From NCBI GenBank assembly GCA_963715985.1, contig CAVQSP010000014.1, positions 416,001 through 480,000 of the forward strand: 64,000 bases of DNA, written 5' to 3'. This DNA comes from an uncultured Thermoleophilia bacterium. Its GTDB lineage: Bacteria; Actinomycetota; Thermoleophilia; UBA2241. The notes under the pieces were generated by a model. The model ran no database searches, was not told the origin of the DNA, and was given only the letters and a program-made list of their open reading frames with translations. Below are positions 20,747 through 56,548 of this stretch, one piece after another. Position 1 is the stretch's first letter; the number at the start of each line of letters is the position of its first letter. Both the position numbers and the translations under genes were made by a program.

Positions 20747-21950
<1,204 letters not shown>

Positions 21951-22800: not shown

Positions 22801-23358
22801 GGCTCACGCGCACAGCCGTGGACGCCGAGCCCCTGCACTGGCCGAGCCTCGCCGAGATCGCGCGTCTCGCGGTGACGCTCCTGCTCGCCCTGCGTGCTGC
22901 AGACGACGGTGGCGCCGAACATCCGCATCCTCGGCGCCAACCCCGACTTCGCGCTCATCATCGTGGTCTGCGTCGCTCTCCTGCGAGGCTCGGAGACGGG
23001 TGCCGTGTTCGGTTTTCTCACCGGCACCCTCGTGTCCATCGCCCTGATGGAGCCCTTCGGTCTCAGCGCCTTCGTCTTCGTGCTCGTCGGCTTCCTCGCG
23101 GGCCGCTATGCGGAGACCGCCGACCTCTCCGCCGGCATCGCTCCGCTGCTCAGCGTGTTCGCGGCGACCCTCATCGCGGGGGTGCTTCTCGCCATGGCGC
23201 AGTTCCTGCTCGCCCGACAGGTGCCGCTGGGGTTCTTCGTCGGGCGCGTCCTCGTGCCCTCGCTCATCCTCAACACCCTGCTGGCGGCGCCGTTCTTCCT
23301 CGTCGTGCGCTGGTGGCTCAGAGGGGCAGGTGATCTGCGTGCTGCTCGGGCCCGCTGA
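22797..23358 (+). CDS. mreD: Rod shape-determining protein MreD; frameshift near 22890
   Basis: Polytopic protein with LQTTV...PDFAL, GAVFGF and PFGLSA; lies between mreC and PBP2 with an ATGA overlap. Confidence 0.85.
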
Positions 23359-25373
23359 CGGCGGCGGTCGCCGCGACCGGCCGATCCGCACCGGTCGCCG
23401 CGACAAGCCCATCATCCAGCTGCCCTCTATCGCCCTGCGCGCCGCTGTCATCATCGGCCTCGCTCTGGTGCTGTTCGGCATCATCTTGTTCCGTCTCTGG
23501 TTCCTGCAGATCCTCAGCGGCGAGCAGTTCGAGGCGCAGGCCAACGACAACCGCCTGCGTTCGGTGAAGATCGTGGCGCCGCGCGGCAGCATCACGGACC
23601 GCAACGGCGAGGTCATCGTGGCCAACCGTCCCGGTCTGGCCGTCGGCATCCGCCTCATGGACGTCCCTGCAGACCAGCTCGACGGCGAGGTCGTGCAGCT
23701 CTCCCGCGTGCTCAAGATGAAGCCGGGCAAGATGCGCACGGAGATCGTCGACCACCTGCGCCCGAGCTGGCCGATCAGCGATCCGCCACTGCCTGTCGGC
23801 TGGTCCGCGGTGACGGCGGGCAAGGTCCCTTCTCTGGACCTGGTCGTCGTCAAGGAGGACGTGGACCGCAAGGTGGTCTCCTACCTCCTCGAGCACTCCC
23901 AGTCGTTCCCCGGCGTGGAGATCCAGAAGAGCTACCTGCGCGACTACGTCCACGGCGACCTGGCGGCGCACCTCCTCGGCAACATGGGCGAGGTCACCCG
24001 CGAGGAGCTCAAGATGCCGCGTTTCAAAGGGTATGCGGCCGGCGACGTGGTGGGCCAGGGCGGTCTGGAGTGGACCTACGACCGCTGGCTGCGCGGGCGC
24101 GACGGCGTGGCCAAGGTGGAGGTCGACGCGTTCGGCCGGCCCAAAGGCCACGACCCCGTGCCGGGCGGGCGTCTGCCCGAGCCCGGCGACACGCTGGTCA
24201 CCACGCTCGACGCCAAGGTGCAGGCGCGCGCCCAGGAGGCCCTGCAGTATGGCATCCACCTGGCGCAGACCGGCGGCTCCGTGGCCGCCAACGGCGGCGC
24301 GGCTGTGGTGCTCGACGCGAACAACGGCCAGGTGCTGGCCATGGCGAGCTACCCGACCTTCGACCCGGCCGAATGGGTGGGCGGCATCAGCAGGAAGGAC
24401 TACAAGAAGTACCGCGACCCCCACAACAACACACCGCTGCTGAACCGCGCCGATCCAGGAGTCCAAGGCCGTGGGGTCCACGTTCAAGCCCATCGACGCC
24501 ATCGCGGCGCTCGAAGAGGGCGTCATCACGCCGGGCACCTCGTTCTTCTGCCCCGGCAGCTACGTGGCACCCAACACGCTGGACAATCACAAGTTCCGCT
24601 GCTGGGCGCTTGATGGCCACGGTACCCTCGACCTGGTGCAGGCCATCACGCAGTCGTGTGACGTGTACTTCTACAACGTGGGCTACCTCTTCTATCAGCG
24701 CAAGGGCACCGAGCTGGAGGACTGGGCCATGCGCATGGGCATGGGCGAGCCGACGGGCATCGACGTCCCCGGTGAGGTCGCCGGACGCATCCCCACGCCC
24801 GAGTGGAAGCAATCGTACTTCGAGACCGAGATCGACAAGATCTGGAAGCCCGGCGACTCTATCCTCCTGGCCGTGGGCCAGGGCAACATGGAGGCCACGC
24901 CACTGCAGCTCGCCGTCAGCTACGCCGCCATCGCCAACGGCGGCAAGCTGGTCACGCCGCACATCGGCCTCAAAGTCGTGGACCCGCAGGGCGACACCGT
25001 GCGCACCCTGGGGACGGCCAAGCCGCGCAAGGTGGACATCTCGCAGGCTACGCTCGACACCGTTCGCACGGGTCTCGTGGACGCGGCCAACTCCGCGAGC
25101 GGCACATCGGGGGGCGTCTTCGGCGGGTATCCCGTCACGGTGGCGGGCAAGACCGGCACCGCCGAGGTCTACGACTCCTCCGTGATGCACAACGTGAACT
25201 ACGCCTGGTACGCCAGCTACGCGCCGGCCAACGACCCCAAGTACGTCGTCGTGGTCATGATCGAGAAGGGCGGGCACGGCGGCGCCACCGCGGCGCCCGC
25301 GGCCCGCCTCATCTACGACCAGCTCTTCGACCTCCAGAGCGACAGGTCCGGCGGGGTCACGAGGAGCGACTGA
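23339..25373 (+). CDS. mrdA: Penicillin-binding protein 2; frameshift near 24460
   Basis: RLWFLQI, APRGSITDRNG, SxxK (STFK), SCD, KTG. Confidence 0.92.
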
Positions 25374-50344: not shown

Positions 50345-51464
<1,120 letters not shown>

Positions 51465-51469
51465 GCCGC

Positions 51470-51913
51470 ATGGGCGGAGGCGCGGCCATCATCATCTGGA
51501 TCCTGGTCTTCTTCGGGATCTTCTACTTCCTGGCCATCAGGCCTCAGCGCCGCCAGAAGGCGCAGCACTCCGAGATGGTGCAGATGCTCAAGCGTGGCGA
51601 CGAGGTCGTCACCATCGGCGGTATGTTCGGCACCGTCACCAAGATCGGCGACGACTGGGTAGAGCTCGAGATCGCCAAGCGCACCAAAGTCCGGTACCTC
51701 AAGCGCGCTGTCTCGTCGATCACCAACATCGTCGAGGACGACGAGGACGAGGACGAGTACATCGAAGCGGGCGAGGACGACGTCGTGGACGAGACGGAGG
51801 GCACCGCTGAGGTGGCCGACGAGGTCGACGAAGAGCCCGTCGCCGAGGCGGAGGACGAGGTGGTGGACGAGGTGCCGGACGCACCCGTCCCTCCCAAGGA
51901 GCCGTCCGCCTGA
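51470..51913 (+). CDS. yajC: Preprotein translocase subunit YajC with long acidic tail
   Basis: [21 protein letters not shown]; SD AGGAGG; internal promoter TGCTAAGAT at 51367. Confidence 0.92.
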
Positions 51914-51951
51914 TTGCGCCGCCTCGAGCCTGGCAGTCATGAGTACTGAAC

Positions 51952-51984
51952 CGACGAGCCCTGCAGGCCCTGCAGGGCTCGTCG
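51952..51984 (+). terminator. 15-bp hairpin after yajC
   Basis: CGACGAGCCCTGCAG-gcc-CTGCAGGGCTCGTCG; no clear U-tract. Confidence 0.6.
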
Positions 51985-52062
51985 CATTCGGGAGATGCAG
52001 GGATTCTTGCCTGCGGCCCGAACTGCGTTCTGACGTGGTGTCGACACAGGGGTAACGCTTTC

Positions 52063-52821
52063 ATGGCGCATGTCATCGCCTTCGCGAACCAGAAGGGCGG
52101 CGTAGCCAAGACCACCTCCACAGTGAACCTGGGGGCCGCCCTGCGTGAGCACGACCTGAGGGTGCTGGCCGTGGACATGGACCCCCAGGGCAACCTGACC
52201 ATGAGCCAGGGCATCGACACCGAGGGGCTCGAGAAGAGCATGTACGACGTCCTCGTGCACCGTCTGCCCATCGAGGACGTCATCTACGAGCGCGAGCTGG
52301 ATGTGGCGGCCGCCACCATCGACCTCGCCGGCGCCGAGATGGCGCTCGCGCAGATGATCGGCCGCGAGCGCGCCCTTCAGCGCGCCCTGGACCCCGTGCG
52401 CGAGCGCTACGACTACATCCTCATCGACACGCCTCCGTCGCTGGGGCTGCTCACCATCAACGCCCTCACCGCTTCAGAAGGCGTCATCGTGCCGGTACAG
52501 TGTGAGTACCTGTCGCTGAGGGGCCTGCTGCAGCTGGAGAGGACGCTGGAGATGATCCGCGAGAACCTCAATCCCGAAGTGCGTATCAAGGGCATCCTGC
52601 CGACGCTGTTCGACGCCCGCACGAGCCACGGCAGGGAGTCCATCGAGGTGCTGCGCGACAACTTCGGCCCGCTCGTGTTCGACACGGTGGTGCGCAAGAC
52701 CATCAAGTTCGCCGAAGCGCCGGTCATCGGGGCCTCGGTGCTCAAGTACGACCCCCGCGGCAGGGGGGCCGAATCGTACCGCGCCCTCGCGCGGGAGGTG
52801 CTGAATGGTCGATCGTCCTAG
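52063..52821 (+). CDS. parA: ParA/Soj-family ATPase (orphan, no parB)
   Basis: [10 protein letters not shown] deviant Walker [32 protein letters not shown]. Confidence 0.93.
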
Positions 52822-54001
52822 CATGAAGGATGGACTGAGCGAGCTCTTCCGGCGCACGGACAGCGCGGGGCCGCCGCCTGAGGCCGCCCAGGATGCGGTC
52901 GTCAAAGGGCGGCCGTACGTGACCACCATCAAGGTCGTGGGTGTGGGCGGCGCCGGCACCAACGCCGTGAACCGCATGGTCGACTCGGGCGTGAAGGGCG
53001 TCGAGTTCATCGCCATCAACACCGACGTTCAGCAGCTCGGGATGTGCGACGCCGACGTCAAGATCCACATCGGCCAGGAGCTCACGCACGGCCTCGGAGG
53101 CGGCGCCAACCCGGAGGTCGGGCGCGAGGCCATGGAGGCGTCGCGCGACCAGCTCAAGGCGGCGTTGCGCGGCGCCGACCTGGTCTTCGTCACGGCCGGC
53201 GAGGGCGGCGGCACAGGCACCGGCGGTGCGCCCGTGGTCGCCCAGGTGGCGCACGAGCTCGGCGCCGTCACCATCGCCATCGTCACCAAGCCGTTCGGCT
53301 TCGAGGGCAACCGCCGGATGCACCAGGCGCTGGACGGCATCGACGTCATGCGCAGCATCGCCGACACCGTCATCAGCATCCCCAACGACCGCCTGCTCGA
53401 GGTCGTGGAGCGCAACACCAGCGTGGTCGAGGCGTTCAAGCACGCCGACGACATCCTGCGCCAGGGCGTGCAGGGCATCACCGACCTCATCACGGTGCCC
53501 GGCCTCATCAACCTGGACTTCGCCGACGTGCGCACCATCGTCAAGGACGCCGGCACGGCCCTGCTCGGCATCGGCGTGGCCGGGGGCGAGAACCGCGCCC
53601 AGGCCGCCGCCGACGCGGCCATCCATTCGCCGCTCCTGGAGACCTCCATCGACGGCGCCCGCGGGCTGCTGCTCAACATCACCGGCGGCGAGGACCTCAC
53701 GCTCTTCGAGGTCAACGAGGCCGCCGGTGTCATCGGCGAAGCCGCCGACGACGACGCCAACATCATCTTCGGCGCCGTGGTGGACGAGCGGCTCAAGGGC
53801 AAGATCTCCATCACCGTCGTGGCCACCGGCTTCGGCGACGCAGCGCCGCGCCAGTCCGCAGAGGCGGCGCCCGACCGCGCCCGTCCGCTCGCCGAGACCG
53901 TGCGCGAGGCTCCGGCCCCGTCGAAGCCGTTCGGCAGTGCGCCGACGTTCGATTCCGGGGACTTCGAGATCCCGTCCTTCGTGCGCCAGCCTGAGGAGTA
54001 G
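52805..54001 (+). CDS. ftsZ: Cell division protein FtsZ with N-terminal extension
   Basis: [26 protein letters not shown]7 loop NLDFAD, C-terminal EIPSF peptide. SD GGAGG 6 nt before the ATG, inside parA. Confidence 0.95.
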
Positions 54002-54034
54002 CCCGTTTGACTGCGCATCCCGGAGGCGACGACC

Positions 54035-54802
54035 GTGCCTGCTGACGCGGCCGTCGCCGCACCTCCGGTAGCCCTGGAGCTGGACCTCGACGTCTTCGAC
54101 GGGCCGTTCGACCTCCTCGTCACGCTCATCCTCAAGGACGAGATCGACATCTGGGAGGTACGCGTCTCGAGCATCATCGCCGAGTACGTCCTCAAGCTTG
54201 CCGACAGCGGCGAGTTCGACCTCGACGCCACCTCGCAGTTCGTGGTGCTGGTGGCGGCGCTGCTGGAGATGAAGTCACGTCTGCTCCTCGAGGAGGACGT
54301 CGAGGAGGAGCTCGAGGATCTTGACCCGGACGAGGCGGCCGCGCGGCTCCTCGAGCGCCTGGTGCGCTACAGCCAGTTCAAGAACGCCGCCGTCGCGCTG
54401 CGCGCGCGGTGGGAGGAGCACAGCGGGCGCCTGTACAGGACGGCGCCGGTACCGGCGTCGCTGCTGCGCCGGCCGGCCCCCGAAGGGGCCCTGCCGGCGC
54501 GGGCCCTGGCCGCCGCCCTCGCGCCGCTGCTGCGCGAGCCTCCGGTCCCCGACACGAGCCACCTCGCCGATCTCGCCGTGTCGCTGGTCAAGGAGCTCCG
54601 CCGTCTGCGCCTCATCCTCGGCGACACCGGCGAGTTCACGTTCTCCTCGGTGGCGCCCGACGACCGTCTGGAGCGTGCCGTCACCTTCTTCGCGCTGCTC
54701 GAGCTGCATTCGGGAGGCGAGGCGACGCTGCGCCAGCGGCGGCACTTCGGCGACATCACGGTGACCCGGCTGCCCGAGCTCGCGCCGGCCGTCGCCGGGT
54801 GA
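54035..54802 (+). CDS. scpA: Segregation and condensation protein A (kleisin)
   Basis: FDGPFDLLVTLI, LLEMKSRLL, FFALLEL, FGDI. Confidence 0.92.
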   Translation: MPADAAVAAPPVALELDLDVFDGPFDLLVTLILKDEIDIWEVRVSSIIAEYVLKLADSGEFDLDATSQFVVLVAALLEMKSRLLLEEDVEEELEDLDPDEAAARLLERLVRYSQFKNAAVALRARWEEHSGRLYRTAPVPASLLRRPAPEGALPARALAAALAPLLREPPVPDTSHLADLAVSLVKELRRLRLILGDTGEFTFSSVAPDDRLERAVTFFALLELHSGGEATLRQRRHFGDITVTRLPELAPAVAG

Positions 54803-54864
54803 CGCCGGGCGCCGGACTGCGGTAGCATCGGTCTCACCAGTTCACTGGCCGACCCCGGGATCTC

Positions 54865-55441
54865 ATGCCGACACTCACCCAGCGCCTCGAAGCGCTCCTG
54901 TTCATCTCCCCGCGTCCGCTTCCGCCTGCCGAGATGGCGGCGGCCTGCGCGGCGTCCGCGAGAGGAGGTGGAGTCGGCGCTGGTTGCGCTGCGTGAGGAG
55001 TACGCCGCCGGGCGTCACGGCCTGGTACTGAGGGAGGTCGCGGGTGGTGTGACCATGGCCGTCGCCCCCGAGTGCGAGGACGACGTGCGCCGCCTCACCG
55101 GGGCCGAGCGCCCGGACGACCTCACGCCGGCACTGCTCGAGACGCTCGCGGTGGTGGCCTATCTGCAGCCGGTGACGCGCGCCGACGTGGCCGAGGTGCG
55201 CGGCGTGTCCTCGGAGTGGGCCCTCTCCTCGCTCGAGGAGCGTGGCTTGGTGGTGCAACAGGGCCGCGCGGACAGTCCCGGCTCGCCCATCCTGTACGGG
55301 ACGGGCGAGCGCTTTCTCAAGCTGTTCGGCCTCGACGCCTCTACGGCGCTGCCCCCGCTCGAGGAGTTCGCTCTCCAGCCGTCGGACGTGGACGAGATCC
55401 GCGCCCGGCTCTTCGCCAATGCCGAGAGGAGACGGGTGTGA
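54865..55441 (+). CDS. scpB: Segregation and condensation protein B; frameshift near 54950
   Basis: LEALLF, LETLAVVAYLQPVTR, RGV, YGT..FL..FGL. Confidence 0.9.
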
Positions 55442-56548
55442 GTCAGCCCATGAACCTTGTGGTCTACCTGGCGCGCGCCGGGGTCGGATCGCGTCGTACG
55501 TGTGACGAGCTCGTGCGCGACGGAGCGGTCACCGTGAACGGCGAGGTGGTCACGTTCCCGCGCCAGAAGATCGGCGAGGAGGACGTGGTAGCCGTGCGCG
55601 GTGACACCGTCGAGCCGCGCGAGCTGCGCTACCTGCTCGTCAACAAACCGCGAGGCGTGGCGAGCACGCGCAGCGACCCCCACGCCGACCGCGTGATCGT
55701 GGACCTGGTCCCGAACGGCCGCATGCTGTTCCCGGTCGGCCGACTGGACGTGGACACCACCGGCCTCATCATCCTCACCAACGACGGCGTGCTGGCCAAC
55801 AGGCTGATGCACCCACGCTACGGCGTGCCCAAGACCTACGCGGCGCGTGTCAAAGGCAAGGTCAGCAGGCGGGCGCTCGGTGCACTTCGCCAGGGCGTCG
55901 AGCTCGAGGACGGCCTTACGGCGCCCGCGGAGGTCAACCTGCGCAAGCAGAGCGCCAAGACGGCCCTCGTCGACATCACCATCCACGAGGGCCGCAAGCG
56001 CCAGGTGCGGCGCATGTTCGCGTCGGTGGGCCTGCCGGTGGAGGAGCTCCACCGGCGCCGGTACGGCCCTATCGCCGACAAAGGCCTTGAGCCGGGCGGC
56101 TTCCGCGAGCTGGCCGGGGACGAGGTGGAGGCGCTGCGCCAGGCCTGCGGAAGAGGTGGCCGACGCGGTGGGCCAGGAGTCAGAGGGCCAGCCACTGATG
56201 CTCGCGGCCGAGGCACAGCCCGTCCTGTCGGACGCGAGCCTGGTCGCACCCGATGCCGAGGTCGCGGAGGCGACCATGCTGGCGCCGGCCCCCGAGTCCG
56301 CGCCGTCTCCACAGACCGCGCCGGCCTCCAGGGAGCCTGCAGCCGCGGAGTCCGCGGCGGGGACTTCCGCGCCGTCTGCTGAGCTCGGCGACTCCTCCGG
56401 CGCCGAGCCCGGACCCGAGCACACCGCCGGCGACGCGCCGGAGCCAGACGATGGTCCCGGCGAGGATCCGGAGCCAGACGACGCCCCCGGCGACGAGGCG
56501 AGGTCCGACGCCGCTGCCGGGGAGCCCGGCGCGGGAGAGGACGGCTGA
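55438..56548 (+). CDS. rluB: rRNA pseudouridine synthase (RsuA/RluB family) with acidic tail; frameshift near 56150
   Basis: S4 domain, NKPRG, PVGRLDVDTTGL, EGRKRQVRRM. The acidic low-complexity tail is in the frame ending at 56548. Confidence 0.88.

Follow-up and report, generated by a model that had tools for sequence, protein, structure and literature searches.

A conserved N-terminal motif on a parA-coupled FtsZ paralogue of Thermoleophilia as a candidate ParA-docking element

The 64,000-nucleotide stretch of DNA analysed here, referred to as the window, originates from an uncultured Thermoleophilia bacterium (GenBank assembly GCA_963715985.1, contig CAVQSP010000014.1, positions 416,001 to 480,000 of the forward strand) and has a G+C content of 71%. 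Its plus strand carries the genes ruvC-ruvA-ruvB-queA-tgt-yajC followed by a parA-like gene, ftsZ, scpA and scpB. This study concerns the N-terminal extension of the FtsZ protein and its relation to the ParA-like ATPase encoded directly upstream. The window product is a complete, true FtsZ. The translated open reading frame (ORF) 52805-54001 matched the NCBIfam model TIGR00065 with 407.9 bits (cut-off 295.2), beginning at residue 39 and profile position 17, and the Pfam domains PF00091 (Tubulin) and PF12327 (FtsZ_C) with 157 and 116.8 bits, respectively. An FtsZ alignment of 36 rows displayed invariant residues G134-G140 of the glycine-rich GTP-binding loop (GGGTGTG), as well as invariant T7-loop residues N236, D238 and D241. 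The protein ends in FEIPSFV behind a variable linker.

Relatives were collected in a scan of one genome per species, and the resulting 80 loci were classed by tblastn synteny and by reading of the N-termini. Class A consists of 26 loci with intact 5′ end and two truncated ones, all from uncultured Thermoleophilia. The gene order is yajC-parA-ftsZ-scpA-scpB, with L026 lacking yajC on a short upstream flank, and the FtsZ proteins begin with M[AVG][DNSE]RPSM[KR]. Class B comprises 13 intact loci and one truncated locus of Solirubrobacterales (Conexibacter, Paraconexibacter, Baekduia), in which parA overlaps an ftsZ gene encoding 459-559 residues. Its product starts with ..KRASMREGPLA[ADE]LFR[KSR]T, behind which lies a linker of 100-190 residues rich in Pro, Ala and Glu. 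Neither yajC nor scpAB is adjacent in class B, and L035 has an acVLRF1 gene downstream. The 33 loci of class C encode an FtsZ with a short N-terminus (M.D.S.NYLAVIKVVG) that is devoid of the motif described below, and their flanks contain no parA. MurC, MurG and FtsQ were detected upstream by tblastn in 29, 26 and 21 of the 33 class C loci, but in 0/39 loci of classes A and B. In the class C locus L051, Pfam also identified murG, murC and ftsQ upstream. The conserved C-terminal peptide reads [FL][DE]IP[SP]F in the aligned class A rows and in the class C row L051, and [LF][DE]VPEF in most class B rows.

At least five of the assemblies behind the 80 loci combine a locus of class A with one of class C (L015/L051, which share a contig, L020/L031, L026/L062, L034/L065 and L018/L056), indicating that the window ftsZ is a second paralogue that exists in addition to the canonical dcw gene. 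A parA gene lies directly upstream of, and overlaps, ftsZ in all 39 motif-bearing loci, compared with 0/33 dcw-type loci. As the neighbours on both sides differ between classes A and B, parA-ftsZ is the sole conserved pair. Identity to the window within class A was higher for ParA (90-95% in most loci) than for the coupled FtsZ (77-87%).

A reading of the window from its letters alone, in the following the sequence-only reading, had noticed 41 residues ahead of IKVVGVGG, and the translation agrees (123 nucleotides, 52805-52927). It had judged this extension to be longer than usual. Dcw-type FtsZ proteins of related genomes have only 11-13 residues before IKV, which bears out the judgement. A short motif and a subsequent Pro/Ala stretch, the two parts into which the extension had been divided, were both present as quoted. 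The proposed start codon, ATG 52805, sits 6 nucleotides behind the last letter of GGAGG in the Shine-Dalgarno-like sequence GGGAGGTG (52793-52800), and the start of ftsZ overlaps the end of parA including its stop codon TAG 52819-52821 by 17 nucleotides. Of 37 related loci, 36 have GGAGG 6-9 nucleotides ahead of the corresponding ATG, the exception being L041 with AGAGG at 12 nucleotides. The parA/ftsZ overlap amounts to 17 nucleotides in class A and to 8, 14 or 17 nucleotides in class B; L006, whose parA is frameshifted, shows 22 nucleotides. A second in-frame ATG at 52823 (M7) is conserved among the related loci as well, and with either ATG as start the motif would be translated. It was used as start in 22 of the 120 database matches listed in a first list and in 15 of the 120 in a second one, including Baekduia alba P0432. 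Altogether, 118/120 gene calls of the first list and 115/120 of the second contain the motif.

Codon usage points in the same direction. Codons 7-18 of 25 class A sequences displayed 18 synonymous codon variants and just three amino-acid variants, and Ser12 is encoded by both AGC and TCN codons. Synonymous variants far outnumber amino-acid variants, showing that the motif R4-T18 is under selection at the protein level. The Shine-Dalgarno conservation and this codon-level selection, acting upstream of the only start codon that would remove the motif (GTG 52919), support a start that includes the motif, as assumed in the sequence-only reading. Judged from these sequence comparisons, the 41-residue extension is a translated and selected add-on of the second FtsZ paralogue.

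Comparison of 35 aligned N-termini from the two Thermoleophilia lineages revealed nine invariant positions, R4, S6, M7, G10, L11, L14, F15, R16 and T18. In addition, position 8 is K or R and position 9 is D or E in 35/35 sequences. The linker behind the motif ranges from about 20 to 190 residues, and its sequence is variable already within class A. A conserved motif joined to a varying linker was the pattern set beforehand as a test of the proposed fusion, and it was this pattern that emerged. The consensus sequences of classes A and B agree at 9/15 positions of the motif, at 191/304 of the GTPase core and at 4/39 of the C-terminal linker. Constraint on the motif thus equals that on the folded core, in contrast to the freely varying tether.

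A regular expression derived from the motif had a single match across the six frames of the 64-kb window. Across the loci, it was found in 26/26 class A and 13/13 class B members with intact 5′ end, in 0/33 members of class C and in 0/5 of the outgroup. Retention in syntenic homologues, on which the earlier proposal had depended, was accordingly complete in the 39 parA-linked ftsZ loci. A profile of the extension searched against 1.84 billion representatives returned 870 proteins at E<=0.001, and the best 150 of these 870 all exhibit the motif at or near the N-terminus. The FtsZ glycine loop is visible in the 24 of these 150 whose length suffices, most matches being short fragments. The motif is also carried by a cultured species, Baekduia alba. 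P0159, P0167 and P0194, also among the best 150, run on into unrelated-looking sequence and possibly stem from chimeric contigs.

The profile matches P0138, P0139, P0150, P0163, P0177 and others exhibit the motif in a third form, MARKRASMREGPLAELFR[AKR]TEAAQ... The frame that encodes it overlaps the end of a ParA, ..KEVL(D/N)GA.AR.HA, that is typical of Gaiellaceae ParAs. This overlap suggests that the group belongs to the Gaiellaceae and that the parA-ftsZ motif arrangement probably exists in Gaiellales, too.

The long linkers of class B harbor two more conserved islands, HPRE(T/S)G(Y/L/V)PHP(S/A)L and (V/I)P(T/S)PQERLR(H/N)AFS(A/S)(D/E)(I/L)P. They were observed in L035 (4536-6008), L021, L022, L032, L033, L038, L040, L041, L045, L053, L060 and L061, the second island being absent from L022, L041 and L061. 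Class A linkers contain neither. Both islands look like further binding sites.

Structure prediction with AlphaFold2, based on the 36-row alignment, produced a normal FtsZ core. Residues 1-38 received predicted local distance difference test (pLDDT) values <50, and a lone helix at residues 7-17 was not packed against the core. This helix is amphipathic, with a hydrophobic moment of about 0.65 and a mean hydrophobicity of -0.15 to -0.36, and its net charge lies between 0 and +1. The prediction for residues 4-18 is hence a short helix of amphipathic character, held by a flexible tether.

The closest solved relatives of the upstream ATPase were 8ray_B (Myxococcus xanthus ParA, 222 bits) and 4pfs (199 bits), followed by Thermus Soj (1wcv/2bek). 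The P-loop KGGVAKT is common to the window ParA and to chain 4pfs (KGGVAKTT). The signature and P-loop lysines K11 and K16, D38 and D40 of Motif 2 and the Walker B residue D122 are invariant in 35/35 ParAs. The 8RAY entry represents residues 21-274 of M. xanthus ParA D60A with ATP, and V116, L150, L152, L155, L187 and L192 are described as its pocket for ParB (PMC12462528). The equivalent residues in the window ParA, mapped by hand from the printed 8ray alignment with an offset of 19 that was checked on the D60A substitution, are M93, L127, L129, I132, M164 and L169. All six positions are hydrophobic in 35/35 sequences; at position 93, class A has M where class B has I or L, a comparison that spans two or three lineages. 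Exchange of R238 for E is reported to abolish non-specific DNA binding of M. xanthus ParA (PMC12462528), and the equivalent K215 is K or R in 35/35 ParAs. Since pocket, DNA-binding and catalytic residues are all conserved, the protein appears to be an active ATPase that binds DNA and whose peptide pocket is intact. A search for ParA homologues retrieved only near-identical ParAs and three Gaiellaceae entries. In the latter (P0271-P0273, 374-387 residues), a segment of about 120 residues is duplicated internally, and these entries look like assembly or gene-calling artefacts.

ParA/MinD ATPases position plasmids, chromosomes, carboxysomes and, via adaptors, the division ring, and each time the partner carries a short N-terminal activating peptide. 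New here is that an element resembling such a peptide is located on FtsZ itself. The sequence-only reading had started from the premise that ParA partners stimulate the ATPase through a short basic N-terminal peptide. This fits the descriptions in PMC12462528 and PMC7993993, according to which the N-terminal region is unstructured, contains aliphatic and basic residues and suffices for ATPase stimulation as a synthetic peptide.

M. xanthus ParB is described to bind ParA via an unstructured N-terminal motif of residues 11-19, in which L11, L15, L18 and I19 are each required; the central R13 is required for stimulation but dispensable for binding (PMC12462528). The FtsZ motif resembles this element in its location at the extreme N-terminus, within an unstructured region and as a predicted short helix. 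M7, L11, L14 and F15 follow the spacing i, i+4, i+7 and i+8 of the four ParB residues, with a glycine before the second. Basic residues (R4, K/R8, R16) are present, the gene lies directly behind its parA, and the window ParA retains the hydrophobic pocket of its M. xanthus relative. ParB differs in being a CTPase clamp on parS, whereas the carrier here is FtsZ. Multivalency of ParB stems from clamp dimerization and that of FtsZ would stem from polymerization. In the PomXYZ system of M. xanthus, a conserved charged peptide of 22 residues at the N-terminus of PomX is reported to be necessary and sufficient for stimulation of the PomZ ATPase (PMC7993993). By description, both arrangements combine a nucleoid ParA/MinD ATPase with an N-terminal peptide, and the purpose of PomXYZ is placement of the FtsZ ring. 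The PomX peptide resides on a scaffold that recruits FtsZ, while here it resides on FtsZ itself, so that no adaptor would be needed.

With a probability of roughly 0.55, we consider the FtsZ peptide to dock on the co-translated ParA and to activate it, which would make FtsZ its own adaptor. Docking is favoured by the linkage to parA, the contrast with the dcw paralogue, the selection on the motif, the activator-like architecture, the competence of the ParA and the breadth of occurrence. The motif helix would dock on the partner ParA and stimulate its ATPase, FtsZ itself carrying the activator peptide. Because FtsZ polymerizes, a filament would present many peptides and become a multivalent cargo of nucleoid-bound ParA. 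FtsZ could thereby be positioned relative to the nucleoid, or kept away from it, without a separate adaptor of the PomX/PomY or ParB kind. Binding, ATPase stimulation and all cell-biological consequences are what we infer from the sequence features.

Several observations weigh against docking on ParA. A short amphipathic helix is a generic feature. Relative to ParB, which has Arg or Lys at i+2, the basic residue stands in a different register: all 35 FtsZ motifs have K/R at i+1 and D/E at i+2. In class B, an extra proline (G-P-L) moves the first hydrophobic residue by one position. Searches of PDB chains with the peptide, either as single sequence or as profile, gave no match at E<=10, and no ParB was among the best 150 of the 870 extension-profile matches. 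The motif thus resembles ParB in its pattern, with no detectable homology. Residues 1-41 reached a best score of 0.84 in the ESM Atlas with nothing at or above the meaningful level of 0.9, an uninformative outcome. Moreover, the association of parA and motif may go back to a single evolutionary event. Class B fell outside A+C in a quick and in a careful tree with weak support (87; 86/89), and an approximately unbiased (AU) test did not reject A+B as one clade (p-AU 0.378). Both trees left out the truncated or frameshifted L011, L014, L018, L024, L037 and L042, and the careful tree used 40 of 75 rows. Given a possible single origin, the contrast of 39 against 33 loci does not represent 39 independent observations. 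Finally, the partners given for the mycobacterial counterpart of the ATPase in PMC10482377 are ScpA and ParB, not FtsZ.

Among the alternatives, the one that fares best assumes that the motif binds another partner, such as a divisome or SMC-ScpAB component, or tunes FtsZ self-assembly, with parA adjacency reflecting co-expression only. We regard it as unlikely. An N-terminal peptide of Anabaena FtsZ is reported to be needed for normal polymerization (PMC6175996). Like the extension described here, this peptide is a lineage-specific conserved addition of heterocyst-forming cyanobacteria and it is functional; compared by description, it differs in acting on polymerization, and the abstract of PMC6175996 mentions no ParA linkage. 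The class A ftsZ adjoins scpA-scpB as well, and the two islands of the class B linkers point to several binding sites. On the other hand, class B keeps the motif though scpAB is not adjacent, the AlphaFold2 model leaves the helix undocked from the FtsZ core, and the dcw paralogue, which meets the same divisome, lacks the motif.

Slightly less probable still is a membrane-targeting amphipathic helix, by which FtsZ would possess its own membrane anchor in the layout of SepF. SepF is described to consist of a lipid-binding N-terminal amphipathic helix (residues 1-12), a linker and a core (PMC8178401). The same order of terminal helix, flexible tether and folded core in a division protein is seen here, the predicted helix 7-17 has a hydrophobic moment of about 0.65, and an amphipathic stretch (KSNLRNLFS) also opens an FtsZ of Peregrinibacteria that has no parA in its neighbourhood. 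Unlike the lipid-binding helix of SepF, the FtsZ motif is weakly hydrophobic, with a negative mean, and near neutral in charge. Neither its polar and small residues S6, G10 and T18 nor the acidic character of position 9 vary, a constancy that fits a specific protein contact better than lipid binding. Furthermore, the C-terminal peptide used by canonical anchors is retained, and a membrane anchor would leave the strict parA coupling unexplained.

That the extension is an annotation artefact, with GTG 52919 (MTTIKVV...) as true start and an upstream frame open by chance, is very improbable: chance ORFs are long in high-GC DNA and one of the 120 database matches listed (P0119) was called from this in-frame GTG, but the 18 synonymous against three amino-acid variants, the retention of the motif in lineages whose FtsZ core is just 52-57% identical to that of the window, the Shine-Dalgarno sequence ahead of M1 and the motif-containing gene calls all speak against a start at the GTG. 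P0119 itself is a read-through of 627 residues from FtsZ into ScpA and looks like an assembly or gene-calling artefact.

Rv1708 lies directly upstream of scpA (Rv1708-Rv1709-Rv1710), and PldP and Rv1708 share a position upstream of scpA-scpB in other actinobacteria. By synteny, the window ParA would be an orphan ParA-type ATPase in the PldP/Rv1708 gene position and a candidate orthologue of the two. Neither this position nor the existence of a dcw-type ftsZ beside the window gene had been noticed in the sequence-only reading. It resembles these proteins in having no parB beside it, and PldP/Rv1708 are tied to cell division. The difference is that scpA directly follows parA there, with no activating partner known, whereas ftsZ intervenes here. 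PldP of Corynebacterium glutamicum is an orphan ParA-like ATPase whose function is called enigmatic (bioRxiv 10.1101/2025.07.02.662783), and Rv1708/MSMEG_3743 is reported to affect division and to bind ScpA and ParB (PMC10482377). Another ParA-like ATPase with a role in division, MipZ of Caulobacter, is described to regulate placement of the Z-ring (PMC10482377; 10.1101/766287), and the window ParA would share with it a proposed link to this process.

More tentatively than docking itself, the two genes could constitute a self-positioning module, a possibility that we rate as rather doubtful at present. FtsZ polymers would be the direct cargo of a nucleoid ParA gradient, and either the Z-ring or another, specialised FtsZ structure would take its place with respect to the chromosome, with no need for Min, Noc, MipZ-ParB or PomXY-type adaptors. 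The effect of MipZ on FtsZ is direct, and MipZ is positioned by ParB; to our knowledge, no N-terminal FtsZ peptide is involved in its action. As part of the self-positioning proposal, the motif-bearing, parA-coupled FtsZ may be the sole FtsZ in Solirubrobacterales, and the orphan ParAs of PldP/Rv1708 type elsewhere in actinobacteria would be relatives of the module.

If ParA docking is true, the peptide would link a ParA gradient to the division protein by a shorter path than any known. It would also give the orphan ParA ATPases of the PldP/Rv1708 class a specific partner that can be tested, and it would explain why class A Thermoleophilia retain two FtsZ paralogues. A literature search, in which subscription journals were thinly covered, found no publication on an FtsZ N-terminal peptide tied to ParA or on Thermoleophilia FtsZ. 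Thermoleophilia are described as abundant in soil (PMC6544083). Together with the 870 sequence clusters retrieved by the extension profile, this suggests that the arrangement is common in nature and not a curiosity of one genome.

The features of the parA-ftsZ-scpAB region are compiled in Table 1.

Table 1. Positions of genes and sequence elements around the coupled parA and ftsZ genes, in coordinates of the window.
Feature	Position	Strand	Basis
parA-like gene, 252 residues, deviant Walker A ATPase, P-loop KGGVAKT	52063..52821	+	Pfam AAA_31 204 bits, CbiA 90 bits
Shine-Dalgarno-like GGGAGGTG within the last parA codons (R-E-V-L)	52793..52800	+	sequence; GGAGG = 52794-52798
Overlap of ftsZ start with parA end, 17 nucleotides (translational coupling)	52805..52821	+	ORF coordinates
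FtsZ paralogue with N-terminal extension, 398 residues	52805..54001	+	TIGR00065, Pfam Tubulin and FtsZ_C
N-terminal extension, 41 codons ahead of IKVVGVGG	52805..52927	+	translation; AlphaFold2 pLDDT <50 for residues 1-38
Conserved motif R4-T18, predicted helix 7-17	52814..52858	+	invariant positions, codon variants, AlphaFold2 helix
Variable Pro/Ala/acidic linker D19 to P37	52859..52915	+	variable in class A; 100-190 residues instead in class B
In-frame alternative ATG (M7)	52823..52825	+	taken as start by some database gene calls
In-frame alternative GTG (V39), sole start that would remove the motif	52919..52921	+	start-codon inspection
C-terminal conserved peptide region, kept	53957..53998	+	FtsZ alignment
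scpA, next gene in the same direction	54035..54802	+	Pfam SMC_ScpA; downstream in class A loci only
scpB, listed ORF from GTG 54968	54968..55441	+	Pfam SMC_ScpB, match from profile position 31

The ScpB profile match sets in only at position 31 and the frame is open over 54803-55441, indicating that the real start of scpB probably lies upstream of 54968. A scan of 51400-55600 restricted to sigma-70-type promoters and simple intrinsic-terminator patterns found neither promoters nor terminators. Beyond scpB, the plus strand continues with a pseudouridine synthase gene, aromatic amino-acid genes, cmk and der.

Two loci of Candidatus Peregrinibacteria, L017 (3159-4367) and L019, displayed a look-alike of the motif. 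Their FtsZ proteins start with the amphipathic sequence MANGKSQKSNLRNLFSS.., followed by about 30 residues before the core. A parA gene was found in neither locus, and the L017 gene is located behind ftsA.

Elsewhere in the window, mreB (20747-21950) is distributed over two reading frames, with its N-terminal part in 20747-21736 and its C-terminal part in 21249-21950. Likewise, the dimerization and transpeptidase domains of PBP2 (23048-25370) are encoded in two overlapping frames. Both splits point to frameshifts or assembly indel errors. Frameshifts were also observed in related loci, namely in parA of L006 and L010 and in ftsZ of L037 and L042.

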